Under the pieces are notes generated by a model that made no database searches, was not told the DNA's origin, and saw only the letters and a list, made by a program, of their open reading frames with translations. Source: Verrucomicrobiia bacterium (lineage in GTDB: Bacteria > Verrucomicrobiota > Verrucomicrobiia > Limisphaerales > UBA1319). Taken from it: a stretch of 64,000 nucleotides of DNA. The translations under genes and the position numbers were made by a program. Below, in pieces: positions 13,801 through 34,015 of the stretch; within the stretch, counting starts at the first letter, position 1, and each line of letters starts with the position of its first letter. Location of the stretch: contig OY760937.1 of the NCBI GenBank assembly GCA_963664225.1, forward strand, positions 5,536,001 to 5,600,000, given 5' to 3'.

Positions 13801-16800
13801 TCGGGCGGTGCTTTCACAGAACATCATACTTGGTGACGAGGACGATATTTCGCTGGGCGTGTTTCCTCATGCCGGGGCATTGGCTCCCGGAGCGGGTTAT
13901 ACGGTGACGCGCACCGCACAAATCCCGGATGGAGTCAGCGGGCCGTATTATTTGATTGTGCAGACGGACGTTGGGAACGCGGTCAATGAATTCCTGTTTG
14001 AGGCGGATAACACAACGGTATCAGACCACACTTTCAACATCACACTGGCTGATTATGTCGATTTGAAAGTGGAGGATCTCAATGTGGCGGGGCCTGACAA
14101 TGCGGGCAGCTACACCATCACATGGAAGACCGCGAATCGCGGAAAGGCTGACTCGACGCAGAATTTCTATGAGCGGATACTGGTCAAGAACCTGACCTCA
14201 GGCGAGGTGCTGCTGGATCAGGAAGCCTTGACGACCAATGCGCTGCCCGTGAACAGCACGCTGGCACGCACGAATTCAGTGAAGACCTCGACGGCTGGAA
14301 ACTACCTTGTCAGAGTGACCACGGACTCGCGGAATAATATTTACGAATATGACGCCACCAGCCACGCGAACGCCGAGCGGAACAGCGTGGATGGTGCCTT
14401 CCAGATCACGCAAATCTACAATATCGCAGCGGGGGCGAATCCCGCAGGGGCGGGAACCATCACCGGCGCCGGGCAGTATGTCATCGGTTCCGTGGCCGAA
14501 TTGACCGCAATACCGGTCACGACGGATAAACCGTATTCCTTCCTGAACTGGACGGAGAACGGAACATTCCAAACCGCCAGCAATACATATCGGTTCAGCG
14601 TAACAAGGGACCGGCAGTTGACGGCGAATTTCGCGTTGCCGGTATTCCAGATCGCAGCCGTCAGCGTGCCTGCGGTCGGCGGGACGGTGACCGGAGCCGG
14701 GACGTACGCCTATGGAGTCACGAACACACTCAAGGCCATCGCCAACGATGGCTATCGGTTTACGAATTGGGTGGAAAACGGGTCTGCGATCAGCACCCAA
14801 ACCAGCCTGACATTTGGAGTGTACACCAACCGTGCGTTAATCGCGCGGTTTGTGGAGGCGAACGTGTTCCATGTGGTCACCACGGCCACGCTGCCGGCGG
14901 GAGTCGCGGCGGTGAGCGGCGCGGGCACCTACAACAACGGCCAGACGGTTTCGATTGTGGCGCCGGCCGCCGTAACGAATGGGCCGATGGCCTATACCTT
15001 CAAACGATTTACACAGAACGGGAATCCGTTCGGAAATGCGCCGTCGATTTCCAAGACGTTTTCAACGCTGGATTCGACGAACATCGCCATTGTCGCGGAA
15101 TACGATGGACGCAGCATTTTGCCGGTGGTGGTCAATGTTTCGGTGAATTACACCAATCCGGTTCCATTGACGACCAACTACGTGCTGACCTTCCAGTTCG
15201 ACCGGTCCATGCGAGGGACACCGGAACCCCAGATTGTGCTGACCAATGCGCAATCGGCGGTTCAACCCGTGGTCGCCAGCGGCGGCCAATGGAGCACGAC
15301 GGCTTCCAACAATGACACCTATTCCACGCCGCCCATTGTCTTGACGACCGGGATGGATGGCACGAACCAGGTTTGGATTTCCAAGGCGCAGGATTTATCA
15401 GGCCTGACGCTGGATCGAACGAACGTCTATGCCGCAATGGTGGATGCGACTCCTCCGGTCCAGCCGGTTTTCAGTCTCGTTTCCTCGAATGCCAGTTCCG
15501 TGGTGCTGGGCTGGTCCGGATATGCGGCTCCACAGGACCTGGCGGGATTCAGAGTTTATTTGGTGCAAACCAATTTCACGACATTGGCGGGTCTTTCCCC
15601 GATTACGGGACTGGCCCCAAGCGCGCGGAACTTCCAGGTTTCAAACCTCAGTCTCGACACCGATTATTATATTGCGGTCATCGCATCGGACATCGCCGGC
15701 AATAGCGCTGGCACTGTGACGCCGCTCAAGATCAAGCTGCCGACCACACTGCCTCCGAAAGTGACGATTGATGTGGCTGCCGTGGGTCCGAACTCGGCCC
15801 GCATTTCCTGGACTGGATATGACACCAGCGCCTTGTTTGGCTTCTCCGGATTCAGGCTCTACATGAAGGATTCACCGTTCGCGATTGTGAACGGAATGAC
15901 GCCCAGCGCGTCGTTCGATGCGCAAACGCGGCAAGCCCAAGTCGATGCCCTGGATCGATCGAAGAAATACTATTTTGCCGTGGTGGGTGTGAATGCAACG
16001 AACGGGTTTATTCCCGTGGTGACCACGCGGCAATGGTCGGATCCGTATGCGGGGAATATCGCCGCCAATCTGACCATCGGTGGAATCGATCAAACGGTGG
16101 ATATTTATCAAACCATGGTGGTGACCAACGGGGTGACATTGACGATCAACGCCGGAACAACACTTCGATTTGCGCCTGGATCGGGCATTGTCGTCGATCA
16201 GGGTTTGATCATGGCCCAGGGGACAGCCCTTGATCCCATTGTGTTGACCTCGTCTTCAGACACCAATGGCGGAAGCCCGGCCGCAGGGGATTGGGCCGGA
16301 TTGGTTGTCAGGGGCAACGCAGCCAATGCCTCCAAATTAACGCAGGTATGGGTCAAATACGGGCAGGGTTTGGTTTTGGACAATGCGACTCCGGTGGTCG
16401 ATGCCTTCTCGGCGGTTTACAATGCTCCGTCGGGACTTCGACTCACGAATGGGGCTGCGTTAACGACCAAAGATGCGTTGATCAGCTTGAACCAGGTTGG
16501 TGCGATGCAATCCGACACGTCGCGATTGATGGTTTGGAATTCGGTCATCAAGAACAACGCCACCAATGCCTGGGCTCGGGGAAGTCTTGGCCTTGTGGCC
16601 ACACAAAACTGGTGGGGCACGCCGCTGCAAGCGGACGTGGTGTCACGATTGACGGGAAATGTCGATGCGAGAGGGTTCCTGGAATCTGAACCGTTGCTGA
16701 CTCCCGCGGCGGGTATTGTGGGAGGATTGACGAGAGTGAGCAGCCAATCGTTGGAGCTGAAATTCGCATGTCGCACAGCGGAATCGATGCGGGCGAGTGA

Positions 16801-19800
16801 AGATTCGGCATTCAAAGGCACGTTTTTTGCGCCCTTTGCGTCACGACAGATCTTCCAGCTTTCTGACGGAGGAGGGCACAAGAGCATTTTTGTCCAATTT
16901 CGCAGCACAACAGGCGACACCAACACACCGCTATTATTGCAGGTGGAATATGTCACCTCCGGCCCGCAAATCATTAACTTCAACCTTGCCGAAGGCCAGG
17001 TCATCAGCCGACCGCTACTGGTTACCGGCATTGCGACAGCGGTGTTGGGAATCCAGAGCGTGGAATTCTACGCCGACAACGTTCTTGCCGACAGCGTCAC
17101 CACTGGAATTTATTCCCGGAGATGGGACATGCGAACGCTGAGTCCGGGAATTCATCGCGTCAAATTGCTGGCACGTGACAAAGGCGGAAGCATTGCGACG
17201 GAAGAGCGCAATGTGACGATCAATCCCACACCCGCACCCGCACCGTTCATCGTCACGCCCGCTAGCGACGGCATTCAGGCTCAAACCACTGTGTCCGTTG
17301 CGGGAACAGCGGAACCGAATATTGGATTGCGGCTGACAGACAATGGAACACTTTTGGCCACGTCCGTGGCGGATGCCACTGGTGGATTCAAGTTCGATAA
17401 TATGGTTTTGGTGGAAGGGGCCAATGAACTTGTCGTGATCGCATACGATGACATTGGAAGCAGTCGCTCCATCACCAGAAGAATCGTGCTGGATACGGGT
17501 GCGCCATCGGCCGTCGTTCTGGATGCGCCCATCTACGTTCCCAACTTCGGAGTCAACCTGAGCTGGAATTATGCAAAGGTGGGAGAAAGGCCTTCGAAAT
17601 TCCAGGTGTTCTGGGCGAAGACGCCGTTTATCTCCACAAATCAGGCCATAGGAAAGAGCCTGGTCCTCAGCCTAACAACCTATGCGGTGCAGGGATTGGC
17701 GGATGGGACTTATTACTTTGGGGTTTTGGGCTACGATGACGCTGGGAATCACAGCCCGATGTCGAGCCTGGTATCGCTTAAATACGATGCCACGGCACCG
17801 TCATTCAATATCAGTTACGACAAGTCGCCACCTGTTGGCGTTGGTCCGGTCCAGGTCACATTGACTGCAAGCGAGCCGCTCACTGGAACACCCGGCCTGA
17901 CACTGAAACCGGCGAATTCCACGCCCATATCGCTGAACCTGACCAATGTTTCGGCATCCAGCTATGTGACGGCGATCGTTATTTCCAATACGACGCTTTC
18001 AGGTCTTGCAATTTGGAATGTGAGCGGACAGGACGTTTCAGGAAATGTCTTTAACGGCGCACCGGCCGGACAACCGTTTAACATCGATGTGATCCAGCCA
18101 GTGGGATCCATCGCCACATTGCCGGCCAGTCCGGTTCAGACCCTTGTTCCGACCAACGTGAGTGTCAATCTGACCTTGAGCAAGCCGGCCAAGACCGGAA
18201 CGCCGCCGATCATCAAGTTCACTCCGCCAATCGGGGCCGAGGTGGGTGTCACCATGAGCGGAACGGGGACCAACTGGGTTGGATTGCTGCCATTGCAAAC
18301 CTCCATGGGTTCGGGTTTCGGACAATTCGCGATGACCGCCGTGGATGCGCTGGATAACACCGGCACCAATATCACCTCTGGCGCGGTGCTTGAAATCTAC
18401 AATACCGCGCTGCCATCGGCTCCTGAGACACCCACCAACTTTGTCGCCCGGACAATCGTCGGGGGACTGGTTCGATTGACATGGAATGCGGTGACGAACG
18501 CCGATATTTACCGGCTGTATCGAGAGCCGGGTTCCAACACGACCGCGCCCACGGCGCTGGTTGCGGACAATCTTTCGACCAACGGTCTGGATGATTTGCC
18601 GTCAGCCGACGGGCGTTACACCTACGCGGTGACGGCGTCGCGGCGTGGTTCCGAGAGCAACCCATCCAAGATCGTCGTTGGAGTGTCGGACAGGACTCCT
18701 CCCGGGGCTCCCACGAATGTGGCGGCGGAATTGGCCAGTTCAGGCGTGCAGATCAGTTGGCGGCCGCCTGCGGGTGAAAAGCCATTCAAATATCTGGTCT
18801 ATCGCAATGGGGTTCTGATTGGAAGCACCAGCACGGGGACCAACCTGGTCGATGCGCCGCCTCGAGGCGTGGCGAGCTATACCGTAAGTTCGGCGGATGT
18901 TACGGGCAACGAGAATTTGAGCACGCCGGCCACGATTGACATGCTGGTGGGGGCAGTGGAGCACCTGGCGGTTCTGGTCAATTCAGGCCAGGCGCCTGTG
19001 CTTTCCTGGACATCCAGCGACACGACGGCGATCGGTTTCAATGTCTATCGGAATGGGATCAAGCAAAATGCAAGCGCGCTGACGGTGGCCAGCTACACGG
19101 ACAATCTGCCGGTTGGCAACGATGCCATCGAATACGTGGTGCGGGCCGTTAATGCAAAGAGTGAAGAAAGCGCGCCGCGCGTGGTGAAGATCTATTCAGT
19201 GACGCTGGACTTGCTGGCGAATGCCGGTGGCGACACTGTCAGCAAGCCATTGGTGACCCGATATTTTGATAATTATCGGGTATCCGTGACGAATCTGACC
19301 GTCAACAACGTGTTTCCGCTGGAGACGGTGGAGTTGCGCCGTGTGGCTGGTGGTGGGGTCACAACGACACAAACCATTCCGGTCGGCCAGTCAGTGGCTT
19401 CCGGCAATTGGTATAATCGGGATGTGGTGTTTGCCAGTGCCACGACGGTCGATGCGCAATCCATGAGAATGCGCGTCATCCAATCGAGCGACCTGGGTGG
19501 CAGCTCGGTGATTTACCAGCGCACCTTCGATTTTGCCAGCGTGCTCGAACCGAGTCTCATGATGAGCCTTTCCGCGAGTCAACCGCCGCTGGCGGGCGGA
19601 CTGACGGATTTCGACGTGCGGCTGTATAACCGCGGCTATGCGGACATCAATGTGATTGTGGTGCGCGAAAACGGGGCGGCTCCCGGGGATGTTTATGTGG
19701 CGGTCAAGAATGCCCTGGGCCAGGAAGTGAGCCGAACGGCCTATCGTGGAACGCCCAAGGGGACCTTCTTCATGAACGATGGACGGGGTTATGTCCGGGT

Positions 19801-22408
19801 GACACCGGACGGATCCATCAACTTCACTGTGGCGGCAGTGCTGGTGCCCGAAGCACTCGGATCCAGCGCGAGCACCACATTCGAAGTGGCGGCCAGCCGC
19901 ATCTATTACCGGCTGGGCAATCCGGAAGTGCTGGAATCAGGTCCGATATCGGGCTCAATGTCATCGAGCCTGCGGCAGACAGATTATTTTGGAACGGCAT
20001 CGACGGATAAAACGGGTTATTCCAATGAGGATCCGATCGTCATTTCCGGGAAGGCCATTGTGCGATCCACGGGCCTGCCATTGGCGAATGCGCCTTTGAA
20101 GATTGGATTTGCAACCCGCGGGTTCAACTGGTTCAAGGAAACGACGACCGACAGTCAGGGCAACTACCAGTATTCCTATTCCACCATGCCTGGTTTTGGC
20201 GGCACCTTGATGTTGTGGGCCGCGCATCCGGATGTGTTCGACCAACTCAACCAGGCGCAAGTGTCCGTTTACAAGATGTATGCCACGCCATCCCGCGGGG
20301 AAATTCGGATGTCGAAGAACGACACGATGGATTTCAGCGTGAGCCTGGTCAATCCCGGGGACATTCCGTTAACTGGTTTTACGACCGAGTTTCATGCCTA
20401 TGTCGTGGATGGAACCAATTATAATGAAATAACGACGATCACCGGAACGAACCTTCTGGGAGCGGGATTCCAAGTGGAGCAGGGGAAGAACCAGACGGCG
20501 GGATTTCGATTGAAGGCGTCTCCAAACGCGCCTGACAAGGCAGTGATCGAGTTTGACGTTCGTTCCGAGCAAGGAGCGCTGGCGACGTTTGTGGGGAATG
20601 TGACCCTGTTGCCGGCCCTTCCGGTGCTTAACGTGGTCAATCCAGCCGTGGGCTATCTGGAGGTCAGTCTGGATCGCGGCAAGATATTGAGCCGACAGGT
20701 GACCGTTGTGAACGGCGGTCTCAAGGATCTCAAGGGGGTTACATTAGTGGCTCCGACCAATGTGACGTGGATGAACGTCAACCTGCCCGTGTCCGATGAC
20801 GGCACGATCCATCTGCCTGATATTGGGATTGGCCAATCGAACACCTTCAGTGTGGTGTTCACACCGCCGAGTGACACACCGCTCAATTATTACAACGACT
20901 TTATCGCGATTCGCGGGACCAATGCGCAGACGGAGTTTAAAGTGCGTTTGTATGCGCTGGTTACCTCCGATCAAAAGGGGTCGGTGCAATTCTTCGTGGA
21001 CAATAACCTTGGGCAGTCGGTATCGAATGCCACGGTGCGGTTGCGCAGCAGTTTGCTGCAATTGGAGCTGACACCATCGATTACAGACGGCAACGGCCTT
21101 GTGACGGTGGATGGGTTGCAGGAAGGCGATTGGTCGTGGCAGGTGAACGCGCCGGGGCACAGCAGCACGGTGGGGACCATCACGGTGGTGCCTTCGCAGA
21201 CCGTGCAGGTGCATACGCGGCTGGCCAAGAGCCTGGTGACGGTGACATTCAATGTGGTTCCAGTGCCCTACACGGACAAATACGAAATCAAGATCGAGCA
21301 AACGTTTGAAACCCATGTTCCGGTGGGTGTGCTCGTGGTCGATCCGCCTTTCAAGGATTTCAAGAAGATCGATTCCGGATTCGAGGCAAACTGGATTGTC
21401 ACCGTGCAAAACTACGGTTTGCTGGAGATGACCGATGTGACCATCGAGGGCGCGGAAACCGGGGGCGGCAAATTGACACCGCTCATCGAATTCATTCCGG
21501 TTCTTTTGCCGATGCAAAAAGTCGAAGTGCCTTTCACATTTGCCTATAACGCTTCGGCAGGAACCACGACCAACACGACCCAGTCATTGAAAAGACAGCG
21601 AATACCCGACTCGGACGATCTTGCCCAGTGCGTTGCGGGGATGATGCCTTTTGGCAGCCTTGCGGATCCCAATATCTTCAGGGGACTGGCTGCCATATTC
21701 CAGGCGAGAGAGAGGTGCATATCCGATCTGGATCCGCAGACCGCATTGGCGTCCGTGGGTATCATATTCGCCATAGGCCAGATCGCAGGCGCGATCGGCA
21801 GCGCCCAGGAATTCATCGTCGGGGCCATTGGGGGATTGATCAGTTGCATCATCGGCAATTTTCTTCCCTTACCCGACAGCGGCCCGTTCTCGTCATACCC
21901 GGGACCGCGATCAGACAACGCATTCCAGATTGGCAATTTGCAGTGCTTCGATGCGGACACACCGGTATTGATGTCGGATGGAACCTCAAGGCCGATTGCA
22001 TCCATCAAGGTGGGCGACCGGGTGAAGACCGGTTCCTACGCTGGAAATGTGGCCGAAGTGCGCGAAGTATTTACGCGCGACCAAACACCCGTGCGAAAGC
22101 TGACGATCAGCGATGGGCTGGAGCATGGAGTGGATCGGGAGATCATTACAACGGACGAACACCTGTTCTGGGTGGACGGGCGCGGATGGATGGCCGCATG
22201 CAATCTGAAAGGCGGGGATTACCTTGTGGATTCAAATAACGAGCGGATCAAGGTGCTGACCAATCACAAGCTGGACAAGGCGATACGCGTCCATTCGTTC
22301 CAGTTAAAAGGCGACAGCGCCTTTTATGCAAACGGGGTGCTTGTGCGCGATATGTGCGGTTTGGGTGGAGTGAAACAGGTCGCCGCAGGGAAGGGGGTGG
22401 CGCAATGA
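1814..22408 (+). CDS. Giant secreted multidomain adhesin-like protein (Ig/PPC/C-type lectin/FG-GAP x21/LamG x3/CARDB/FN3/beta-helix) with C-terminal Hint domain
   Basis: The ORF opens at GTG 1781; ATG 1814 gives a Sec signal (MSHQTLFLCTALFAMATHA|A). Three blocks of seven DxNxDGxxD repeats, LamG motifs (WTHIAATYD...LYVNG...IDEVRVW), CTL EPN/WND, CARDB (PNLQVT...NAVNE) and Hint C1 at 21944 (CFDADTPV...TTDEHLFWV...FYANGVLVRDMC). Confidence 0.92.
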   Translation: MSHQTLFLCTALFAMATHAAQPPYATDFESGVGAEWSLPNVDASEIGSFSRFSGRFTNDKQTLTLSNMTVGVSYSLFFDFYAIDTWDGSYSGTGDYFNVGVDTNQVFHYTFSNYNGDPPSNPQSYPGVPDVGRYNMGFAGYVDAIYRNIEIPFIASNTVVQISFQGQNLEDISNESWGIDNVSVRPSSQTQTTTISYTTLPPDHSTNGFVLDGFGIGALRNLLGTTATNGANYSFREAGANGVFGDSDDAIIPLNLNFNGYNSVNFTLTNAPLQPGKYRFETKAGLLDTNSNAVAVFAREFVIANPVGGQIETPNNDSIATATALPMAENPAGSGFFAAFGLGLFSAKGEADYWRFEGEARDKLTIRLEANANGIYPQLYLQDSTGQTLSSVGGDYYGTAQIQNYVISKPGTYFVKVWSDNQTGKYKLRVDQSRGPQLEQEDNNAQSTANVLGLTFSTGTYQARIAGALTGNDSGAGDVFSLGTLNAGNSISVALAMPVGGSLVTSAAILSIEGAGAGNGVSLATNTAGFLNFIVASNDLYYVRIATANSNLNLNAQYLLSITVVDGVPPVVVSTSLPDGGQATTNLIDKISVLFSEDLAQSVNNMGQRYLTYGGRRYAVTPPALSWEDAETYAQSIGGHLVTINSPLENEWIRRQFSSYGSVWIGYTDKAAEGTWVWADGSPTKYTHWNSGEPNNSGGNENYGVMLTSGFWNDVNAATTAYGVVEIGTGGLDTDGDGLANAIDPFPNDALNGFELRGAGADGLFKTADDRVYALVADSYSGGLAVTLRVTDGPLLPGKYQFVLTTSIKDRAGNSMAGNYTNSFVVTALSGYVTYNGAGDVTPISGSVAAAPDGSLVNYSDAPTGRYPRGIAAGLLDGGTNLDLAVANYGSGDVSILLGAGDGTFYRSTNYATGNGAATVTMGDLNKDNRMDLVVVNNSANNVTVLMGNGDGTFQSGTNYAVGSSPIGLVLRDFNGDGKLDLAVANQSAKTISVLMGNGDGTFKTAVNYGTGNQPYSLVAADFNGDGKVDLAVANYGESTVSVLNGNGDGTFNAKVDYPTGTGPRGLDVGDLNGDGKLDLVTGNTDAGTVSILAGNGDGTFAAKADYASGGSDVYQILLADFNGDNRLDVVVPGFGNSRLCILLNRGNGTLESPMTYPAGNNAIWAAAGDFNGDQRLDLAVVNYYASTVTVLNGVGAKLLTEDPIGSGIRIGAGRGQLKNQSDVDVWNFTAKAGDLVSVAVEVPGNPAASQLYYRIYNAAGDTLTDFYTSYNGWGQSAPYRFAASGTYWIGVQRYYDYFSEYRLRVTLASPPTQMETEDNSDISHANKPALELASGHLTASVLGYFGVGDANGDYFNFGNLAAGATIQLTMKQPSSSGLAGVLGIYDAGGNLVANGAPGATPVSYTIPPGGGSNYYARVMGAGIYGLHAASGNSALVFDGNADFVMVTNAPSLDLSNQFSLEAWVYPRNFAGRDRAVISKVGGTGGNNGYQLVFGQDGKLSLLFNASGESWPANSVSTPPLDILNRWTHIAATYDNDTMRLYVNGQLAASNTIGAKSVVKSLSNLRIGNDDNAYVFFDGLIDEVRVWNTARSASAILTGMSQSLTGAESGLAGYWPFNEGSGGVASDLSPNKNSGILGNGVASQQPAWVALRTTDQPAAGIFAQYLMGVDIADAVAPLITSITLPAANSTNQIMIDRFTITFNKDMMASTVTNSLSYDLRSAGPDGLFNTGDDVLYPVINQNYSSGLSSSYLIGDGPLQSGSYRLTAKTALKDRSGNALAADYKRDFVVAGVAGFITENRSNDTQNTATSLSIAPGNLNDGSFYQGDSVGVGSRPYSIVSGRFNGDNHLDLATANSSDGTISILLGSGSGTFTNATNISVGGNPYNVATGDFNGDGKADLSVTKDSPYQVVILLGAGDGTFQAFTNYTVANSPRVQAVGDFNKDGKLDIAVACQSVDKVSVLLGNGDGTFKTNVDYPVGSQPYGIAMGDFNKDGKLDLVVGDYNGDQVSVLMGKGDGTFDSAVNYPTGGGPRAVAVGDMNGDGTLDIVTANSQGNSLSMLEGKGDGTFLAKRDFGMTIYDTYQVLLTDLNGDGRSDVVIAAYGAGRLGVLLNRGNWAFENYEDYSMPSGIGVVAGDFNEDLRTDLAVASYSNNKVTVFSGNNNELLAEDPAGSGIRSSAARGNVSGVNDVDYWSFSAKSGDILALSVETPGNPAASQLYYTVYYPNGAVVSEFAADSYYGWGNLSPVRLNVSGTYTVGVRRYYDYVGEYRIRVTLAPDKYQMEVEPNNDIAHANAPTLVLANGHQTANVVGSIGEGDGSGDYFRLGNLSGGTLIHLGLTQPTVSPLQDILTIYDTNGTIITNSAIRGTSLDFTIPTGGDGAYYARVQSANPGAVQFSGGNDYVNVGNWSPGTQWTVEAWVKPNAAPSGRHGIAGGFNSCADWGIVLQDGQFGIATKPPSGCSITIPSGEAVTLNQWYHVAATCDGTNAQLYVNGVLKATGPVSVNYSANGNGTWIGSEACCGNETFSGLIQEVSIWERPLSGAEITSGMSHALAGTETGLAGYWKLNEGVGTVALDSSTRNRNGTLVNGPVWARSDLAGFASAALPGTVIFDRLYAIYALNIDLSDSQPPSIVAVSLPDEGSTNTTIVDRFTINFNKDMMATTVTNAATYELRSSGANGIFDTADDEIYTISCDGYTSGLTASYRISDGPLQPGFYRFTIKTALQDRTGNPLPQNYTRKFKVEGVDGFILETRNNNTLGQATSLSRARTATPDGSFRQAENVNVENNPRFAGVADLNGDGKLDMVVANSGAGNVSVLLGVGDGTFQPRTNYATGSGPTGVALADYDKDGKIDAVVANYNANTITLLQGNGDGSFQAITNITTGNHPLYLISGDFNRDGKPDFGVTCNGENKIYVYIGHGDGTFDAPSIYSTGTNPEILAAGDFNGDGKPDLAVGNYRSANVSVLLGNGDGSFQAPVQFATGAGPAAVAVGDLQNKGKLDLVVANYDAGTLSVLRGDGAGNFGTNTDYSTGGTQPYILTLADINGDGFLDVVVPNSGSGNVAVMLNLGDGTFAAPVTYTTGYRPFQVVAKDFNQDGRLDFAAVCYGNAYVSLYLGNDTEYLAEDPTGSGIRTSASRGRMTTSTDADYWSFTGKAGDWLIVAVDTPGTPAGSALDFRVDGPNGANVTDFQGGYYGYGQCAPVQLPFTGTYTILVKKYYDYQGEYRMRVTTAPSSYQLEQEDNSAINRANTLNLAAANQHRAANVLGYIGTGDDSGDYYSLGNLGAGTTITLKTQRPLTSGLWPAMAIYKTGGTPVTNSVGGITNLSYTIPSGGDGAYYIGVAKSDFGPRAGLRLDGSQAVGYGSWLTNQAFSVSMWIKPDASQTSYADIMDNNHRGGVNWVIQQDGGNVNSYSFGVADGGLPPTFYITPGNWHHLMVSRDAARLDRVYLDGQVVSSTTGTGDINYDGNQFLRSGRWGGGGRNWNGVIDEVHIWDHALTALELQRDIGYATAPGDAGIIGFWKFNEGSGSVVKDYSAFARDGAIEGTPQWGSFAEQPYDPLFAQYILKVDLSDTLPPVITSVSLPDEGSTNSAILDTFTVAFSKDMLASTVTDPGSYEFRGAGDDGILGTGDDILYTIQCDGYGSGLSAAYHIMDGPLQPGLNQLTISTAMKDRSGNPIAAPFIRTFAIGSIGGFAFETRNNNTAATATPITLIEDPTGFKSGGGRGNLSSASDVDFWKFDGHTNESVVLSVEIPDHPGGSQLHYQIFAPNGNNLADFTSDYYGSGLSSVLLLPTNGVYTIRVEHYYNYFYEYRIRLGVAVPPMQMEAEGNDDIAHANAIALAPGGQGRYGSMAGCIRTSGDLDYYSIAGITNGSTVFVSVRLPSTSRLSPVVSLYDKNNQYLAEAPGGRPNDGVAQVRITQDGAYYAVVRGSEGVGGITEQYVVDFQVIPSGNVNFPNLQVTSLIPPTGLITSGGSISFGFSVTNIGSVATPAAAWSDRAVLSQNIILGDEDDISLGVFPHAGALAPGAGYTVTRTAQIPDGVSGPYYLIVQTDVGNAVNEFLFEADNTTVSDHTFNITLADYVDLKVEDLNVAGPDNAGSYTITWKTANRGKADSTQNFYERILVKNLTSGEVLLDQEALTTNALPVNSTLARTNSVKTSTAGNYLVRVTTDSRNNIYEYDATSHANAERNSVDGAFQITQIYNIAAGANPAGAGTITGAGQYVIGSVAELTAIPVTTDKPYSFLNWTENGTFQTASNTYRFSVTRDRQLTANFALPVFQIAAVSVPAVGGTVTGAGTYAYGVTNTLKAIANDGYRFTNWVENGSAISTQTSLTFGVYTNRALIARFVEANVFHVVTTATLPAGVAAVSGAGTYNNGQTVSIVAPAAVTNGPMAYTFKRFTQNGNPFGNAPSISKTFSTLDSTNIAIVAEYDGRSILPVVVNVSVNYTNPVPLTTNYVLTFQFDRSMRGTPEPQIVLTNAQSAVQPVVASGGQWSTTASNNDTYSTPPIVLTTGMDGTNQVWISKAQDLSGLTLDRTNVYAAMVDATPPVQPVFSLVSSNASSVVLGWSGYAAPQDLAGFRVYLVQTNFTTLAGLSPITGLAPSARNFQVSNLSLDTDYYIAVIASDIAGNSAGTVTPLKIKLPTTLPPKVTIDVAAVGPNSARISWTGYDTSALFGFSGFRLYMKDSPFAIVNGMTPSASFDAQTRQAQVDALDRSKKYYFAVVGVNATNGFIPVVTTRQWSDPYAGNIAANLTIGGIDQTVDIYQTMVVTNGVTLTINAGTTLRFAPGSGIVVDQGLIMAQGTALDPIVLTSSSDTNGGSPAAGDWAGLVVRGNAANASKLTQVWVKYGQGLVLDNATPVVDAFSAVYNAPSGLRLTNGAALTTKDALISLNQVGAMQSDTSRLMVWNSVIKNNATNAWARGSLGLVATQNWWGTPLQADVVSRLTGNVDARGFLESEPLLTPAAGIVGGLTRVSSQSLELKFACRTAESMRASEDSAFKGTFFAPFASRQIFQLSDGGGHKSIFVQFRSTTGDTNTPLLLQVEYVTSGPQIINFNLAEGQVISRPLLVTGIATAVLGIQSVEFYADNVLADSVTTGIYSRRWDMRTLSPGIHRVKLLARDKGGSIATEERNVTINPTPAPAPFIVTPASDGIQAQTTVSVAGTAEPNIGLRLTDNGTLLATSVADATGGFKFDNMVLVEGANELVVIAYDDIGSSRSITRRIVLDTGAPSAVVLDAPIYVPNFGVNLSWNYAKVGERPSKFQVFWAKTPFISTNQAIGKSLVLSLTTYAVQGLADGTYYFGVLGYDDAGNHSPMSSLVSLKYDATAPSFNISYDKSPPVGVGPVQVTLTASEPLTGTPGLTLKPANSTPISLNLTNVSASSYVTAIVISNTTLSGLAIWNVSGQDVSGNVFNGAPAGQPFNIDVIQPVGSIATLPASPVQTLVPTNVSVNLTLSKPAKTGTPPIIKFTPPIGAEVGVTMSGTGTNWVGLLPLQTSMGSGFGQFAMTAVDALDNTGTNITSGAVLEIYNTALPSAPETPTNFVARTIVGGLVRLTWNAVTNADIYRLYREPGSNTTAPTALVADNLSTNGLDDLPSADGRYTYAVTASRRGSESNPSKIVVGVSDRTPPGAPTNVAAELASSGVQISWRPPAGEKPFKYLVYRNGVLIGSTSTGTNLVDAPPRGVASYTVSSADVTGNENLSTPATIDMLVGAVEHLAVLVNSGQAPVLSWTSSDTTAIGFNVYRNGIKQNASALTVASYTDNLPVGNDAIEYVVRAVNAKSEESAPRVVKIYSVTLDLLANAGGDTVSKPLVTRYFDNYRVSVTNLTVNNVFPLETVELRRVAGGGVTTTQTIPVGQSVASGNWYNRDVVFASATTVDAQSMRMRVIQSSDLGGSSVIYQRTFDFASVLEPSLMMSLSASQPPLAGGLTDFDVRLYNRGYADINVIVVRENGAAPGDVYVAVKNALGQEVSRTAYRGTPKGTFFMNDGRGYVRVTPDGSINFTVAAVLVPEALGSSASTTFEVAASRIYYRLGNPEVLESGPISGSMSSSLRQTDYFGTASTDKTGYSNEDPIVISGKAIVRSTGLPLANAPLKIGFATRGFNWFKETTTDSQGNYQYSYSTMPGFGGTLMLWAAHPDVFDQLNQAQVSVYKMYATPSRGEIRMSKNDTMDFSVSLVNPGDIPLTGFTTEFHAYVVDGTNYNEITTITGTNLLGAGFQVEQGKNQTAGFRLKASPNAPDKAVIEFDVRSEQGALATFVGNVTLLPALPVLNVVNPAVGYLEVSLDRGKILSRQVTVVNGGLKDLKGVTLVAPTNVTWMNVNLPVSDDGTIHLPDIGIGQSNTFSVVFTPPSDTPLNYYNDFIAIRGTNAQTEFKVRLYALVTSDQKGSVQFFVDNNLGQSVSNATVRLRSSLLQLELTPSITDGNGLVTVDGLQEGDWSWQVNAPGHSSTVGTITVVPSQTVQVHTRLAKSLVTVTFNVVPVPYTDKYEIKIEQTFETHVPVGVLVVDPPFKDFKKIDSGFEANWIVTVQNYGLLEMTDVTIEGAETGGGKLTPLIEFIPVLLPMQKVEVPFTFAYNASAGTTTNTTQSLKRQRIPDSDDLAQCVAGMMPFGSLADPNIFRGLAAIFQARERCISDLDPQTALASVGIIFAIGQIAGAIGSAQEFIVGAIGGLISCIIGNFLPLPDSGPFSSYPGPRSDNAFQIGNLQCFDADTPVLMSDGTSRPIASIKVGDRVKTGSYAGNVAEVREVFTRDQTPVRKLTISDGLEHGVDREIITTDEHLFWVDGRGWMAACNLKGGDYLVDSNNERIKVLTNHKLDKAIRVHSFQLKGDSAFYANGVLVRDMCGLGGVKQVAAGKGVAQ

Positions 22409-25400
22409 AAACGACTCCATCGATTTTAATTCGAAATCTCATGAAGCCCATTGAACGCATACTGAATGTTGCCCCTAAATGGATTGGCTCATGCGTTTGC
22501 GGTTTGTTTCTATACTGCGCCATGACTGCTTCGGCACAGCAGGAACAGCGCGGACTCTGCGCTCAGGTCAAGATCGTGATCCTTCAAGAATTGACGTTGG
22601 AGCGCATCGGTTTTGAGGCCACTCTTGAAGTGACCGATAATGACGGGAATGATCCGATCACAGACTTTTTCGCCGATCTCACGTTCGAGAATCCGGCGTT
22701 GTCCACGAATGGCGTGGCCAACGATGCCTCATCCCTGTTTTTCGTGCGCGCGCCGGAACTGCAGAATATTTCCGACGTGAATGGCGGGGGAGTGATCGGG
22801 CCCACAAAGAAGGCGGTGATACGCTGGTTCATCATTCCCAAGATCAAGGCTGGTGGAATCACCCCTGATGGAGTCCGTTATAAAGTGGGCGCCAAGCTCA
22901 GCGGGAAGTTTCAGGGAATACAATTGCCCAGCGATGTGTTGCAGGCCCTGCCGGACACGATTGTGGTCAGGCCCGAGCCGCAATTGGAAATCACCTATTT
23001 CCAACCGAGAGATGTGCAAGGTGACAATCCTTTCACGCCCGAGGTGGAAAGCCCGATTCCATTTTCCATCGGCGTGCTGGTAAAGAACTCAGGCTATGGC
23101 ATTGCGCACAAACTTAAAATCGCGTCGCAGCAGCCGCAAATTGTGGAAAACAAGCGGCATCTATTGTTGGTGGCGCAATTGCTTGGGTCGCGGGTTAATG
23201 ACGCGCCGCTCGATAATGCGAACCTGACCGTGGTGCTGGGCGATTTAAACCCGGGGGAGGCGCAGAAAGCCTCCTGGGACATGATCACATCGCTCTCGGG
23301 AGAGTTTACCGATTTCAAGGCTTCGTTCACCCATGCTTCGGACCTGGGTGGTGAGGAAACCTCGGTGATCAAATCGATCAACGCGTATTTCATCGCCCAT
23401 GAGGTTCTTAACGACATGCCGGGCCGCGATAAATTGCTCGATTTTCTCGCGGACACGGATCGTGACGAAAACATGATACCGGACGCGCTTTACGAAAGTG
23501 AGGGGAATGTCGAGCCCGTCAACTATCTGGCGAATACCACCATCGATGCGATATCGGGCACACCCGGTGCCTACAGGATCAGCCTGGATGCGGATCGTTC
23601 CGGCTGGTGCTATATGAGGTTGAACGATCCCGGGCAAAACCGGTTGAAAATCGAGAGCATCGTTCGTTCGGACGGCAAGGTGATCAACCCCCATAATATG
23701 TGGACCAATACCCGGTATGCCAAAGTGACCAATGCCCGGTCCGATTATCTCAACTTGTTCGATCTCGTTGATCTCAAAAAATACACTTATACCGTGCAGT
23801 ATGCTCCATCGAGCATCGATACGACACCGCCTGCGACCACTTTGCGGTTTGTCGGCACTTCCGCTTATTCCAACGGGAGATACTACATCACGCCCGATGC
23901 TCAAATGTACTTCACAGCGGAAGATCAAAGTCCGGTCAGTATTTATTACAGCCTGACAAACAGCGCGTTTATACCGGCGTATCCATTTGTGCTGCGCACG
24001 CCGGGAGAATACGCGCTCAAGTATTACGGGCAGGATGCCAGTGGGAATCGGGAGGCAACCAATTCCACCGTGCTTGTGGTTGGGAACGCGGGTCCGACTT
24101 TATTAAGCTTCCTTGGCGCGACGCAGGCGGTGATTACCTCCGGAGACGCGTTGTCCGTTCGCCCGAATTCCGCCGACATTCGTTACCGCGCGGGATTCAG
24201 CCCCGTGCCGGTGGATGCCTATCTGGATATTTTCCAGGGAGTCATGGGCTGGCCTGTGGTTTCAGGGGTGCCATCGTCGCCCACTGCCGCCACTCTTGCG
24301 CATTTGGTCATCCGCGGCGACTGGGTGGATTTTTACAAATACAGTCTGGATGGCGGCGCGTGGAGCGCTGAAAAGCCGGTGGCGCAAATATTGCATTTGC
24401 TCAATCTGTCCGCAGCCCAGCATAGCGTGAAGGTGCTGGGACGCTCCGCATACGGAGACTATGGCGCGGAAACCAATGCGGTGGCGGTTCAATGGACCGT
24501 TGATCCAGCGGCTCCGCCGACCCAGATCACGGGCACGCCGGCCACCCCAACGAGCGATCTTTTTGCGACGCTCAAAGTTGCAGGCACGGGAGTTAATTTG
24601 TACCGGTGGACATTGAGCAACGGCTATTATCGCGCGCCCGCCGGTGTGGCTGTTCCTCTTTCGATCACGAATCTGGGAGCGGGACCACAAAACATTTCTG
24701 TCATCGGCCTGTACTCAGGCGCGTGGCAGCCAACGAATAATCCAACAACGGCTGCCTGGACGGTGGATCCGGCTTACGGCTCCGATTATTCATCCAAGAC
24801 GCTTGTGCGCAGTGTGACCAATCGGAATGTTGGATTCCTGCCGCAGAGTTTTGCCTGGGATGGCCGGAACGAGCAGGGGACGATCATGCCTCCCGGGTGG
24901 TACACCGTGCGGCTGACACTCAAGGATCAGGTGGGGCGGTCCACCTACGCGACCAAGCTGGTGCAACTGGGCGAATTCGCCGGGTCTTTCAATGCGCTCG
25001 CCGCCGCCAGTCGAGGACCTGAGAATCCGAATGCGCGCGGACGTTGGGCCGTCTGGCAGGATCAAAGCTCGGGCAATTCGCAAATCTATGCGCAGGATTT
25101 GCTGATACCCGGCAATGCCCCGTTCGGTTTGACGACCAGCACTCGCAGCCAGGAGAAGCCAAGAACAGATGGCCGCTTTGTGGTCTGGCAGTCCCGGCAA
25201 ATCAATGGCGGGTGGGACATATGGATTCGCGATCTATTGTCGGGCGGCCAGGCCTCAGCACTGACCTCGACAACCGATGTCGATGAAACCAATCCAACGG
25301 TCGATTGGCCCTGGGTCGTTTATCAGTCCAAGTCGTCCCTGGACGCCAAGGCGCCGCAACAGTTGAAGGCGGTGAACCTGGTAACAGGGGTCACTCAATC

Positions 25401-26436
25401 GGTTTCAGACAGCACGCAGGATGAACTGGATCCGGACGTGCAGGCGGGCCGGGTGGTCTGGCAGGATTCCCGGGATGTGGGAGCCGGGGAGATCTACTTT
25501 AAGAACCTTGAGAGCGGCGAACTGAGGCGTTTGACGACTAATGCCTTTGGCCAGTATCATCCCGCCATCCACGGCAACGAGGTCGTGTGGCAGGATAATC
25601 GCAACGGCCAGGTGGACATTTACGCGTTCGACTTGCTTCGGGACACGGAGGTGCGGATCACGCAAACCGCCGAAAACGAGACCCGGCCGTTCATCGATGG
25701 GCCGTGGTGCGTTTGCGAGGAGGATTCCCTGGGCGTCTCGGTGGCCAATATACGGCTCATCCATCTGCCTACGCGACAAATCGTGCCGATCACGCGCACG
25801 ATGACCACCAAGTCGCGTCCGGCATTGGCCGCCAGTCACGTGGTGTGGCAGGATAGCGCCGGTGGGCAGAATACGATCATGTCCGCGGAGTTGCCGTCGT
25901 TGCAGCCCGTGTTCCAGAATCAGAATATCGTGGCGGTGACCGAGGCGCTGGCTGCCAATCAGCATGATGCCAGAACTTTGCTGTCGCGATGGAATGCGCA
26001 GGCCGGTGTGACGGAAGTGACGCGAGTCGCTTCGTTGACGCCCACGGTTACTTTTGAGACGGCTCGATGGAACAAAGGACAATTCAGCGGAACCAATTTC
26101 GTGCTGGCCGGCGGTTCGTTTTTGTGGGTGAAGTTCGATACGAATCAAGTCATCGACCTGGGGGTCAATGGCCGGGGCTTTGCCGATCTGAGCGCGGGTG
26201 TCAATGCCATCAGCTACACCGCGTTTCCCAATGATTATTCCGCGTATCAAATGGTGCGGCAGTTGGGTGTGGACAAGGTCAATGCGATCCGAATTCTCGA
26301 ATCGGAATCGGGTCGCTGGCTGGTGGCCGAAGTGCGAAACAGCCGGTTGATTGGTGATGATTTTCCGATCCCGCGCGCGGCGGTGGTCTTTGTGGATATG
26401 GATTCGGCAGTGACGCAGTGGCGGCCGGAACCCTGA
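22405..26436 (+). CDS. Large secreted partner protein: conserved N-terminal domain, Ig-like repeats, FlgD-Ig-like domain, Methanosarcina-type surface beta-propeller repeats, tandem C-terminal repeat
   Basis: ATG 22405 overlaps the upstream stop (ATGA) after a G-rich SD-like tract. Signal peptide ends TASA|QQ. Motifs LCAQVKIVILQELTLERIGFEATL, FAWDGRNEQGTIMPPGWYTVRL and repeated VVWQDxRxGxxDIY. Confidence 0.85.
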   Translation: MKTTPSILIRNLMKPIERILNVAPKWIGSCVCGLFLYCAMTASAQQEQRGLCAQVKIVILQELTLERIGFEATLEVTDNDGNDPITDFFADLTFENPALSTNGVANDASSLFFVRAPELQNISDVNGGGVIGPTKKAVIRWFIIPKIKAGGITPDGVRYKVGAKLSGKFQGIQLPSDVLQALPDTIVVRPEPQLEITYFQPRDVQGDNPFTPEVESPIPFSIGVLVKNSGYGIAHKLKIASQQPQIVENKRHLLLVAQLLGSRVNDAPLDNANLTVVLGDLNPGEAQKASWDMITSLSGEFTDFKASFTHASDLGGEETSVIKSINAYFIAHEVLNDMPGRDKLLDFLADTDRDENMIPDALYESEGNVEPVNYLANTTIDAISGTPGAYRISLDADRSGWCYMRLNDPGQNRLKIESIVRSDGKVINPHNMWTNTRYAKVTNARSDYLNLFDLVDLKKYTYTVQYAPSSIDTTPPATTLRFVGTSAYSNGRYYITPDAQMYFTAEDQSPVSIYYSLTNSAFIPAYPFVLRTPGEYALKYYGQDASGNREATNSTVLVVGNAGPTLLSFLGATQAVITSGDALSVRPNSADIRYRAGFSPVPVDAYLDIFQGVMGWPVVSGVPSSPTAATLAHLVIRGDWVDFYKYSLDGGAWSAEKPVAQILHLLNLSAAQHSVKVLGRSAYGDYGAETNAVAVQWTVDPAAPPTQITGTPATPTSDLFATLKVAGTGVNLYRWTLSNGYYRAPAGVAVPLSITNLGAGPQNISVIGLYSGAWQPTNNPTTAAWTVDPAYGSDYSSKTLVRSVTNRNVGFLPQSFAWDGRNEQGTIMPPGWYTVRLTLKDQVGRSTYATKLVQLGEFAGSFNALAAASRGPENPNARGRWAVWQDQSSGNSQIYAQDLLIPGNAPFGLTTSTRSQEKPRTDGRFVVWQSRQINGGWDIWIRDLLSGGQASALTSTTDVDETNPTVDWPWVVYQSKSSLDAKAPQQLKAVNLVTGVTQSVSDSTQDELDPDVQAGRVVWQDSRDVGAGEIYFKNLESGELRRLTTNAFGQYHPAIHGNEVVWQDNRNGQVDIYAFDLLRDTEVRITQTAENETRPFIDGPWCVCEEDSLGVSVANIRLIHLPTRQIVPITRTMTTKSRPALAASHVVWQDSAGGQNTIMSAELPSLQPVFQNQNIVAVTEALAANQHDARTLLSRWNAQAGVTEVTRVASLTPTVTFETARWNKGQFSGTNFVLAGGSFLWVKFDTNQVIDLGVNGRGFADLSAGVNAISYTAFPNDYSAYQMVRQLGVDKVNAIRILESESGRWLVAEVRNSRLIGDDFPIPRAAVVFVDMDSAVTQWRPEP

Positions 26437-26473: not shown

Positions 26474-27295
26474 ATGAAAAAGATCATCAATTACGCAGGC
26501 CTGCCAGCCGTCGCTGCCGTCTGGCTGCTGGCGGGCGTCTGCCAGGGCCATGGCGCAACGGTCGCGGATTTGCAGAAGCGCCTGGCGGAGGGCAAGCCCG
26601 TGACGATCATCGATGTGCGGCCCAACGAACTGTATCGCAATGGGCATATCGAGGGCGCGATCAACATTCCGGCGAATCTGTTGTCTGCGAAAAAGCTTCC
26701 CGCGCTGGGACAGGTCATCGTTTGCGCGGAAGGACTGGGTCGGGACAAAGTGGAGGAGTCGGTGAACTGTCTCAATGGAAAAACCGGGATTCAGGCGGAG
26801 GCGCTGGATGGCGGTTTTGCCGCATGGGAAACAGCGCAGGGCGGCAATACCCGGCCCATGGGATTGCAGCCGGAAAGCCTGGTCCACATCACGTACGATC
26901 AACTCAAGACAACGAAATTGACTGATGTTGTTCTGGTGGATCTGCGGCGGAACAGTCCCGCCACGCGTCAAAGCGTGAACAGCGCGACCAATGTTTCTGA
27001 AGCCGCGTTGACGGATCTCAGCAAAGAGTTTCCGGGGGCGGTGATTTCGCCATCCCCATTCAGTCTGGCAGGCGCAAAACAATCCAGTGCCAACCGGCGC
27101 GAATCCGCACCCTTATTGGTGCTCATAGACACCGGCAACGGAATCGCTGAAGAGACGGCGCGCAGCTTGCAGGCCAATGGCTACCGGAGGGTTGTGATTC
27201 TGGCAGGCGGTGAGCAGGCGCTGGCACGCCAGGGACAACCCGGATTGCAACGCATGGGATTGGGATCGGTGATGACGAGTGGCGCGGATCATTAA
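26474..27295 (+). CDS. Secreted tandem rhodanese-domain protein
   Basis: Signal peptide. Domain 1: IIDVRP..YRNGHIEGAINIP...VIVCAEGLGR...LDGGFAAW (Cys present). Domain 2: VLVDLR...LVLIDTGNG...LAGG (Asp at the catalytic position). Confidence 0.85.
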   Translation: MKKIINYAGLPAVAAVWLLAGVCQGHGATVADLQKRLAEGKPVTIIDVRPNELYRNGHIEGAINIPANLLSAKKLPALGQVIVCAEGLGRDKVEESVNCLNGKTGIQAEALDGGFAAWETAQGGNTRPMGLQPESLVHITYDQLKTTKLTDVVLVDLRRNSPATRQSVNSATNVSEAALTDLSKEFPGAVISPSPFSLAGAKQSSANRRESAPLLVLIDTGNGIAEETARSLQANGYRRVVILAGGEQALARQGQPGLQRMGLGSVMTSGADH

Positions 27296-28728: not shown

Positions 28729-28796
28729 TCGGGCTTGATTTTGGGCGCAGCCCGTGCGAAAGCTGCCGGTCAGCAGAAATGCGGTGGAACCGGCTG

Positions 28797-29861: not shown

Positions 29862-30220
29862 AGAAGAACATGGACAAAATCACCATTCGCAATCTGGAAT
29901 TGTATTACCACGTCGGTGTTCCTGATGCGGAGCGATCGCAGGCCCAACGATTGCTGATCACCCTGGAAATGGAAGGCGATTTTTCCGAGGCGGCAAAAAC
30001 GGATGACCTTTCCAAAACGGTCGATTACTACAAAGTGGCGCAACGCTTGATTCACTTCGGCGATGGCCGGAGCTGGAAACTTATTGAAAAACTGGCCGCA
30101 GACATCATCGAAATGCTGTTTGCGGAGTTTGCGGCCGATGCCTTCGCAATCGAAATCAAGAAAATGGTTATTCCTGAGACGGAATACGTTTCCTTCTCCA
30201 TGAGTCGAAGCCGCGAATGA
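29858..30220 (+). CDS. folB: Dihydroneopterin aldolase
   Basis: MDKITIRNL..HVGVPDAER..Q, TVDY, KLIEKLA, IEIKK. GTG start overlaps the upstream stop; alternative ATG at 29870. Confidence 0.9.
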   Translation: MKKNMDKITIRNLELYYHVGVPDAERSQAQRLLITLEMEGDFSEAAKTDDLSKTVDYYKVAQRLIHFGDGRSWKLIEKLAADIIEMLFAEFAADAFAIEIKKMVIPETEYVSFSMSRSRE

Positions 30221-31764: not shown

Positions 31765-31795
31765 CATATTTTTGTCATGAATAACACTCGGACGC
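31761..31795 (+). promoter_or_regulatory. Candidate promoter giving a leaderless mRNA
   Basis: TTGACA (31761-66), 16 bp, AACACT (31783-88), 7 nt, ATG 31796. Confidence 0.4.
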
Positions 31796-32782: not shown

Positions 32783-33110
32783 AGATGCAGAGATGCGCGG
32801 GTGCATGACAAGATTCCGCGATGAAATAACAAGAACTCCTAATAAATCCCCTGATACGGTTTCCACAGGGCATCATCCGTTGTCGAGGAGAGCCCCGGGA
32901 AGCTCCCCGCAGCCAACGGTGAATAACTGTGCCGCCGCCAAAAAAACGAGTGGTGAAAAAGATTTGCCGTTGGGGTATAAAAAGCCTGGCGGGCATCGCG
33001 CCAGAGGTTGGCCAATGAACAAATTAAACGATGAATACCACACCATACTCTGGGTTGGCCCATTTACGCTTAGGTTGGTTCAATACAACTGATTCCACCA
33101 TAATTGAGCC

Positions 33111-33602: not shown

Positions 33603-33807
33603 AAGTGCTTAGGAAAGGGTTTCCGGAATTCTGAATGGCTGTCAAAGTTCGTTTAAATTGTCCCCATTGGATCATTTGGACTCTCTTTTCACCGTATCCG
33701 TCAGGCGAAGAGGCAACAGGCAATGACCGGGCTGAAGCGGTTAAATGGGGGGCATGAACCACAGAACTGCTTGCTCAAACCGATTTCCAAGTCACACAAC
33801 GGTTTTA

Positions 33808-33980: not shown

Positions 33981-34015
33981 GAGCGCCACGAGTCAGGCAA
34001 AAAGTCATATCTGGG

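Follow-up and report, generated by a model that had tools for sequence, protein, structure and literature searches.

The window analysed here is a stretch of 64,000 nucleotides from a Verrucomicrobiia bacterium (GenBank assembly GCA_963664225.1, contig OY760937.1, positions 5,536,001 to 5,600,000 of the forward strand), and the element under study is a Hint domain (21944..22351, forward strand) at the very end of a giant secreted repeat protein, whose open reading frame (ORF) occupies positions 1781..22408 of the same strand. Hint domains are known from three roles, namely splicing in inteins, toxin release in PT-HINT proteins, and the attachment of cholesterol in Hedgehog proteins. The domain described below belongs, judged by its sequence relatives, to a large and mostly verrucomicrobial family that dispenses with the terminal Asn of inteins and with any cargo, and the ORF that carries it is invariably paired with one downstream gene, whose product we refer to as the partner. 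Among the possible roles of such a domain we favour, tentatively, one in which a thioester formed at the C-terminus of the giant would be passed to this partner protein.

The giant comprises 6875 residues when read from the GTG at 1781, with an alternative ATG at 1814 that gives a signal-peptide-like start. Its domains include FG-GAP (FG-GAP_3 in 16 stretches), LamG, Big_5, C-type lectin, PPC, CARDB, fn3, and InlB-B-like modules, and it is poor in Cys, with 22 in the entire chain, six of them within the last 260 residues. The C-terminal part opens with a helical, Cys-containing pre-Hint region (21611..21862; typically three Cys in the family), in which four helices are modelled with moderate confidence at residues 18-28, 37-50, 59-78, and 83-101 of the last 282 residues (predicted local distance difference test (pLDDT) 50-70), and continues with a flexible Pro/Gly/Ser-rich linker (21863..21943; pLDDT <50 at residues 110-123), the last residue of which, Gln6721, is residue -1 of the Hint domain. 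At the junction, LQ is followed by CFDADTPV, the Cys being Cys6722 (TGC, 21944-21946); the block-B motif T-x-x-H takes the form TTDEH (22151-22162, with Thr at 22151-22153 and His at 22160-22162); and the domain ends in FYANGVLV-R-D-M-C-G, with Arg at 22346, Asp at 22349 (22349-22351, the position of the intein Asn), Met at 22352, and Cys at 22355-22357. This last stretch, Met-Cys-Gly (22352..22360), holds the second Cys of the domain, Cys6859 or Hint residue 138, two residues past the residue at the Asn position. Sixteen residues separate this second Cys from the stop codon TGA (22406-22408), and the Hint domain and tail together make up the last 154 codons of the ORF. The start of the domain, its block B, its unusual end, and the 16-residue remainder had already been pointed out in the first-pass annotation of this sequence, and all of them are seen in the ORF at 1781..22408. 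The pre-Hint helices were also considered as a membrane anchor, an idea that we rejected: the Kyte-Doolittle value reaches ~1.9-2.0 over 19 residues in the window copy, the maximum in relatives ranges from 0.4 to 2.9, and the equivalent stretch is charged in the orthologue of genome G022, so that there is no consistent transmembrane segment.

The giant ends in a genuine Hint domain, with a match far beyond chance. PT-HINT (PF07591), the best-scoring Pfam family, matches the end of the giant with 39.7-40.6 bits (E 7.3e-10) against a cut-off of 27.7, a match found nowhere else in the 5.78-Mb single-contig genome, and it also matches 44 of 50 family members at E<=0.01. The Hedgehog-type Pfam Hint profile (PF01079; 23.4-24.2 bits, cut-off 29.7) and Hint_2 (PF13403, the profile of B-type bacterial intein-like (BIL) domains; 13.3 bits, cut-off 28.4) stay under their thresholds, with 24 and 14 of the 50 members, respectively, matched at E<=0.01, as do Hom_end_hint, Vint, and the NCBIfam profile intein_Nterm (15.2, cut-off 24.5). 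The profile search thus bears out the Hint assignment of the first-pass annotation and places it with PT-HINT. An AlphaFold model of the last 282 residues, built on a 50-row alignment, has a pLDDT of ~94-98 over most of residues 130-265, with linker and tail disordered, and a Foldseek search with the Hint model returns 72 matches at E<=0.001 among BIL domains, inteins, and Hedgehog Hint. At the top of the list stand BIL2 from the BUBL1 locus of Tetrahymena (E 7e-12), a BIL of Clostridium thermocellum, and the gp41-1 and DnaB inteins, and Hedgehog Hint is ranked at about 29-30, with 1AT0 and 6TYY significant. BIL2 of BUBL1 is likewise the best match of an hmmsearch against the PDB (E 7.6e-14), with 2LWY among the top. 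Because the family consensus LVhD-l aligns there on LAH(N143A)-M of BIL2, the family Asp sits at the intein Asn position and the Cys at +2. By profile, the domain is therefore best described as a member of the PT-HINT and A-type BIL lineage that has neither a terminal Asn nor a cargo, and as neither a Hog domain nor an intein. A separate observation concerns its N-terminal half: the Pfam family AXH (the Ataxin-1/HBP1 module) is also matched by 20 of the 50 family members in the alignment, and, across the Hint's first ~80 residues, a family profile matches Ataxin-1 AXH chains (4J2J, 2M41, 1OA8) at E ~1e-4, which suggests a link at the sequence level between this half of the Hint domain and AXH.

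A phmmer search with the last 282 residues against 1.84 billion cluster representatives retrieved 4811 proteins at E<=1e-3, including 261 at E<=1e-10, and the family counts given here were taken from the best 150 of the 4811. By motif search, the C-terminal layout of the giant is present in 116 of these 150, and a stricter pattern in 104; at least 33 of the proteins that share the layout are 3,000-7,200 residues long. Across the 104, the penultimate-His position is held by His (59), Arg (18), Gln (18), Glu (4), Tyr (4), or Phe (1), and the Asn position by Asp (62), Gln (18), Glu (15), His (8), or, once, Asn; the residue between it and the late Cys is variable (Leu 46, Arg 18, others), and a Gly directly follows the Cys in 94. 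Of the R-D-x-C ending to which the first reading had drawn attention, it is consequently the part D/Q/E/H-x-C-G that holds family-wide, the Arg belonging to a minority of 18 in 104. At the other end, all 95 members that reach that far open the Hint domain with Cys and a hydrophobic residue, preceded at -1 by Gly in 46 and Ala in 21, with Gly-Cys-Phe as the commonest junction. A Thr stands in block B of 105 of 109 domains. The alignment A1, of 50 rows, shows the block-B His without exception, and its invariant positions include H201, W204, W210, V262, and C266, the last being the late Cys.

A quick IQ-TREE phylogeny of 178 Hint domains from the best 150 proteins unites 109 of them in one group, with a Shimodaira-Hasegawa-like approximate likelihood ratio test (SH-aLRT) value of 96, a grouping that depends in part on the motif itself because the motif columns were in the alignment. 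None of the 109 has the Asn and every one has the x-Cys ending, one row ending in H-Q-K-C; the single Asn-bearing protein among the 104 lies outside the group. The nearest neighbours of the group are Hints that end in HN, HN-C, or HN-x-C, and the median end branch within it is 0.66, a sign of long internal divergence. Because 116 of 150 representatives share the layout and the 109 grouped domains all lack the Asn and all keep the x-Cys, the Hint domain of the giant is, as read from these alignments, a family member and not a degenerate copy among homologues that all carry HN, in line with the earlier view of its non-canonical end. Hints of the HN-x-C type (e.g., VHN-A-C-G) occur in metagenome loci L102, L107, L111, L112, L114, L118, and L121 and in proteins P0125, P0126, P0135, and P0151; they carry C-terminal extensions of 74-391 residues, and the partner gene follows none of the seven metagenome loci. 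Since such Hints are among the nearest tree neighbours of the Asn-less family, this suggests that the +2 Cys is older than the loss of the Asn. In its taxonomic range, the family Hint is found in 5 of 41 genomes of the same order, and nearly all loci from the wider genome collection are labelled Verrucomicrobiota (Pedosphaera, Opitutales, Puniceicoccaceae, Verrucomicrobiales), with one Pontiellaceae. Four cassette loci come from metagenome-assembled genomes with unexpected labels, namely L016 (Bifidobacteriaceae), L017 (Bifidobacterium), L023 (Saccharimonadales), and L036 (Akkermansia muciniphila); because their gene content is verrucomicrobial, the labels of at least L016, L017, and L023 look like binning or labelling errors.

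What follows the Hint domain is a variable, disordered tail (22361..22405; pLDDT <50), whose conservation at the protein level is limited to that imposed by a ribosome-binding site. In 115 family members the tails are 2-60 residues long (median 18) and variable in sequence, with a bias at their very end toward Glu or Gly at -4 and Val or Gly at -3, and toward Lys, Arg, Pro, or Gln at -1 in 99 of the 115. The bias at -4 and -3 arises because the Shine-Dalgarno word of the partner gene overlaps these codons: in the window a Shine-Dalgarno-like AAGGGGGTGG (22391..22400, forward strand) lies within the last codons of the giant ORF, and most of 31 loci have a GGAGG(T)-type word 7-9 nt ahead of the partner start. 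In the window and in 24 of 30 genome loci the partner start overlaps the stop codon of the giant as NTGA, in the partner frame, the remaining six having a start from 19 nt before to 11 nt after the stop; NTGA also ends 56 of 59 family ORFs in metagenome loci. A reading of the conserved tail end as a C-terminal sorting signal was rejected on these grounds, the DNA being a Shine-Dalgarno word plus an NTGA overlap of stop and start. Because the tail bears no visible protein-level information, the Hint domain appears to have nothing to release or to splice on, and the tail appears non-functional as protein. The absence of a toxin or of a functional C-extein, which the first-pass annotation had proposed for this copy with its 16 residues after the Cys, accordingly extends to the family.

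The partner gene (22405..26436, forward strand) begins with an ATG that overlaps the TGA of the giant as ATGA and encodes 1343 residues, which comprise, besides a signal peptide and Ig-like sandwiches, a beta-propeller and a C-terminal domain. For the first 456 residues of the mature protein the model shows Ig-like sandwiches in tandem (pLDDT 77.6), for which the fold matches are integrin legs, ribophorin, PrgB, and antigen I/II, all with low template modelling (TM) scores and with no enzyme fold among them; the propeller is a seven-bladed-looking repeat that matches TIGR04275 with 113 bits. With the signal-peptide cleavage site judged by eye, the predicted mature N-terminus is QQEQRGLC (22537-22560). 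This start, Q-Q-x-x-x-G-x-C, is disordered in the model, and Q1, G6, and C8 are invariant in 20-23 orthologues; C8, which is C52 of the precursor, is the only invariant Cys of the partner. A prediction of the complex between the 456-residue N-terminal part and the 282-residue C-terminal module of the giant gave interaction prediction scores from aligned errors (ipSAE) of 0.11 and 0.16, against a mark of 0.32, and was counted neither way.

The pairing of the two genes is strict. The partner gene lies directly downstream of the Hint ORF in four of four loci from related genomes, in all 30 genome-collection loci that reach that far, and in all 58 metagenome loci of the family type for which 400 nt or more of downstream DNA is available, and it follows none of eight HN-type Hint loci and one of 12 unclassified ones (L105, which has a family-like end). 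The partner gene is thus obligatory for the family Hint ORF. It is accompanied by two further genes. The third gene of the cassette (26474..27295, forward strand), present in 26 of 26 loci that extend past the partner, encodes an exported tandem rhodanese-like protein of 273 residues, in which the catalytic Cys of the first domain is present in the window copy; this Cys is found in 5 of 27 copies, Tyr standing in its place in 21 and Phe in one, and the second domain of the window copy has Asp at the active-site Cys position. The rhodanese-like protein looks like a pseudo-enzyme, and a sulphur or thiocarboxylate chemistry contributed by this gene was rejected as a conserved feature because of the 5 copies in 27. 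The fourth gene (27310..28728, forward strand), found in 22 of the 26 loci, encodes an exported protein of 472 residues. Among the 41 genomes, full-length orthologues of the partner and of the 472-residue protein occur in the same five genomes as the family Hint, on the same contigs, and in one additional genome, which is 75% complete and in which the contig starts just downstream of the expected giant gene. Conservation downstream of the family Hint does not extend to any immunity-like gene or toxin cassette, and within the cassette no lipid- or wall-related gene is conserved.

The position of the Hint domain acquires its meaning from a set of paralogues that have no Hint at all. In 11 places in related genomes (G024:C6, G036:C19, G009:C56, G033:C7, G039:C3, G021:C239, G005:C98, G022:C6, G025:C89, G009:C1, and G009:C12), the N-terminal module of the partner (about residues 44-480) and the C-terminal ~200 residues of the 472-residue protein, which form the end module of these one-piece paralogues, are found within single Hint-less ORFs; genome G022 holds both a one-piece paralogue and a split Hint cassette. 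Three such loci were retrieved (L043-L045) and the order of modules was read in two of them, L045 stopping at a contig end shortly past the partner-like module, without the beta-sandwich and without the C-terminal module. In both ORFs a homologue of the beta-sandwich that directly precedes the giant's pre-Hint region (tblastn 1e-16 and 2e-10; hhalign probability 98%) is followed by a Cys-rich, Gly/Pro-rich stretch of ~215 residues and then by G-x-C-A-K-V, which opens the partner-like module; the ORFs proceed through ~720-760 residues of other sequence to the module resembling the 472-residue protein, with the stop codon immediately or one residue past it. Because a single ORF carries the sandwich, the partner-like module, and the 472-like module in this order, the cassette of the window is most simply described, at the level of module order, as a split version of the one-piece paralogue, with the Hint domain at the first break.

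In all active Hints the N-S acyl shift is driven by Cys1 together with block B, and in inteins the acyl group then moves to C+1. In the giant, Cys6722 would correspondingly attack the carbonyl of Gln6721, aided by the block-B Thr and His, and so generate a thioester at the C-terminus of the giant, a step that we consider probable. The acyl group could next be relayed to Cys6859 as a branched thioester, this Cys corresponding to C+1 of inteins and to C143 of Hedgehog; by analogy, we give the relay an even chance. Hedgehog C143 is described in PMC12054796 as taking the acyl group in a branched thioester that an external nucleophile, cholesterol, then resolves, which renders out of date the earlier statement that Hedgehog Hints use the N-terminal thioester only, and with which a C143-like role for Cys6859 fits. 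Because there is no Asn to cyclise, the intermediate would wait for a nucleophile from outside. In the reading that we favour, although we hold it to be somewhat short of an even bet, that nucleophile would come from the partner, the product of the overlapping next gene, made in step with the giant; the partner is preferred as the acceptor because the Hint domain lies at the split point, translation is coupled, and the partner is obligatory. The giant and the partner, exported separately, would be joined covalently, the Hint domain and tail would be discarded, and the continuous chain of the one-piece paralogues would be recreated. In its full form, this would be a case of protein welding, in which a one-piece Asn-less Hint on an exported protein of ~6,700 residues ligates it to the partner's N-terminal region; that form is possible and somewhat less secure than the transfer itself, and equally tentative is the expected product, an envelope chain of >8,000 residues of the kind that the paralogues make as one polypeptide. 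The earlier suggestion of attachment to a lipid or glycan receives no support from the context of the locus, which leaves the partner protein and water as the live options; the acceptor is best constrained by the obligatory and translationally coupled partner and by the one-piece, Hint-less paralogues.

Several points weigh against transfer to the partner. Textbook native chemical ligation is inapplicable because the Cys of the partner is residue 8 and not residue 1, and the predicted N-terminal residue is a Gln, prone to a cyclisation that would block the alpha-amine; at the fourth position past the Cys a Lys is frequent, yet not invariant. The motif around this Cys, G-x-C-A-(K/Q)-V, is also found internally in the one-piece paralogues, so that the invariant Cys is not specific to ligation and may be structural, e.g., engaged in a disulfide. 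The Cys-rich stretches between the modules of three paralogues show no similarity to the 120 pre-Hint residues of the family (hhalign probability ~1% or less), and the collinearity of the two forms therefore rests on the flanking modules. The penultimate His is conserved in only 57% of the family, and a thioester in the periplasm could simply hydrolyse. Finally, in one of 60 family-type metagenome loci (L097, Hint at 3001-3417) no stop codon separates the Hint tail from the partner, the frame running on through a basic stretch and the partner signal peptide to QQQFQGVC; the locus may represent a misassembly or a natural fusion, and the mature partner would be the same after cleavage by signal peptidase.

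The main rival is plain autoproteolysis, in which water resolves the thioester and the Hint domain is a cap that removes itself. Such a cap might, e.g., keep the Cys-rich C-terminal region of the giant inactive up to export and then expose it, so that it could assemble with the partner non-covalently or through a disulfide. We regard this, too, as possible, at about the same level as the full welding scheme. It draws on the same conserved N-terminal machinery of the domain, and autoproteolysis is the activity that PMC7765530 generally ascribes to PT-HINT and BIL-A domains. The odd number of Cys residues usual in the pre-Hint region, three, and the single invariant Cys of the partner would suit an intermolecular disulfide, and the occurrence of the partner motif in the one-piece paralogues also speaks for it. 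Self-cleavage, however, leaves unexplained why a domain destined to be discarded has been retained in more than 100 diverged lineages, why the Asn has been lost and the second Cys kept, and why the Hint lies exactly where the paralogues are continuous.

Two further explanations are unlikely. In the first, the thioester would be transferred in the style of Hedgehog to a membrane lipid amine, peptidoglycan, or a glycan, anchoring the C-terminus of the giant to the envelope. The Hedgehog-like layout, with Cys1, TxxH, and a second Cys but without the Asn, and the prevalence of the Gly-Cys-Phe junction speak for such an acceptor, but Hedgehog needs a sterol-recognition region and no conserved region follows the Hint domain that could recruit a small molecule, the catalytic Cys is missing from 22 of the 27 copies of the rhodanese-like protein, and the cassette is devoid of a conserved gene related to lipids or the wall. 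The second, with a similarly low standing, holds that the domain is a catalytically dead relic, a pretoxin Hint left behind after toxin loss and persisting as no more than a folded cap or a DNA spacer that bears the ribosome-binding site of the partner. That PT-HINT is the best Pfam match, that the nearest relatives outside the family are HN, HN-C, and HN-x-C Hints, that the HN-x-C Hints of metagenomes have extensions of 74-391 residues, and that the window copy has Arg in place of the penultimate His are all compatible with this history. A relic would nevertheless be expected to lose such residues as Cys1, the block-B Thr and His, and the second Cys, which are conserved across a family with 261 matches at E<=1e-10 that forms one group of long internal divergence, and downstream conservation takes in neither an immunity-like gene nor a toxin cassette. 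Splicing in cis or trans, in which Asp, Gln, or Glu at the Asn position would cleave the C-terminal junction and the tail would be ligated or released as a peptide, is very improbable: inteins ending in Asp or Gln do reportedly still splice (a finding ascribed to Amitai et al. in 2004) and these two residues make up 80 of 104 in the family, but the Glu and His of another 23 are incapable of the usual cyclisation, the nucleophile stands at +2 instead of +1, and the variable tails, shaped by the overlapping ribosome-binding site, provide neither a spliced-on segment nor a released peptide of conserved sequence.

Among the closest known systems, PT-HINT and A-type BIL domains, including the solved BIL 2LWY, share with the family the Hint fold, Cys1, TxxH, and a host that is a large secreted bacterial protein. 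In PMC7765530, after Amitai 2003 and Dassa 2004, A-type BILs are said to cleave at either end and to have a highly conserved His-Asn terminus, whereas the family has no His-Asn end (Arg-Asp in the window copy) and no downstream toxin or other domain, and has instead the conserved +2 Cys and Gly and the strict pairing with a partner gene. The Hog domain of Hedgehog resembles the family as a C-terminal Hint on a secreted protein, with a common Gly-Cys-Phe junction and TxxH; both lack the terminal Asn and have, close to the end of the Hint, another conserved Cys (residue 138 in the giant, where a catalytic role is presumed, and C143 in Hedgehog), and PMC12054796 adds that C1 and C143 of Hedgehog are able to form a disulfide in the endoplasmic reticulum. 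The family differs in being bacterial, in lacking a sterol-recognition region, in its sub-threshold PF01079 score, and in having one extra residue before the Cys.

BIL2 of the Tetrahymena thermophila BUBL1 locus (6Y75, 6TMM) is the closest solved relative by both sequence and fold, and is reported in PMC8616854 to conjugate its N-extein to other proteins in trans via an isopeptide bond. Unlike the family Hint, it keeps His-Asn (the crystallised mutant is N143A) and is eukaryotic and cytosolic, lying between ubiquitin-like domains. Class 1 and split inteins have the same fold and the same first catalytic step, and in both cases two gene products could become one chain. The family, however, lacks the Asn and the +1 nucleophile (Asp-Met-Cys), the whole Hint is on one polypeptide, the partner has no C-terminal intein fragment, the host is not a conserved housekeeping enzyme, and there is no conserved C-extein on the same chain. 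Polymorphic toxin systems differ in that the cassette holds no toxin domain and in that its downstream genes, for the partner, the rhodanese-like protein, and the 472-residue protein, are conserved and not polymorphic. The bacterial Hint-like proteins of Myxococcus, Photorhabdus, Serratia, and Yersinia, which Burglin 2008 (PMC2362128) and also Dassa and Pietrokovski describe as C-terminal and divergent from BIL domains, are akin to the giant in being secreted and in having a divergent C-terminal Hint with conserved Cys residues upstream of it; they are set apart from the giant's family here by that description (genera, divergence from BIL) and not by sequence. A published account of the Asn-less Hint family or of its gene pairing was not found in a search that did not extend to subscription papers or to the supplementary alignments of Burglin 2008.

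The family as such is a large, mostly verrucomicrobial group in which a Hedgehog-like catalytic layout stands, free of cargo, at the very end of giant surface proteins. If the partner does receive the thioester, the family would provide the first natural bacterial case in which chemistry of the intein type joins two separately secreted proteins. Such a system would parallel, in bacteria, Hedgehog cholesteroylation and BUBL conjugation, the acceptor being a protein, and it would offer a ready-made ligation tool that needs no C-terminal intein fragment. Even if the domain does no more than cut itself off, a two-cysteine, Asn-less Hint design exists in bacteria, which bears on the origin of the Hedgehog processing domain.

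Two minor observations complete the description. The flanks of the cassette in the window (79..1542 and 28779..36072) look ordinary: upstream lies what resembles a fragment of a GH95-like glycosidase, and the downstream side has a HAD-NUDIX fusion, TilS, and FtsH. Another family of proteins (L008/G002, L009/G034, P0012, P0064, P0065, and P0142) carries two to five canonical Hints in tandem, each ending in VHNKGG(G) and followed immediately by the Cys-Phe or Cys-Leu start of the next, and behind the array come a stretch rich in Gly and Ser, then a hydrophobic segment, and finally a conserved C-terminal domain of ~300 residues.

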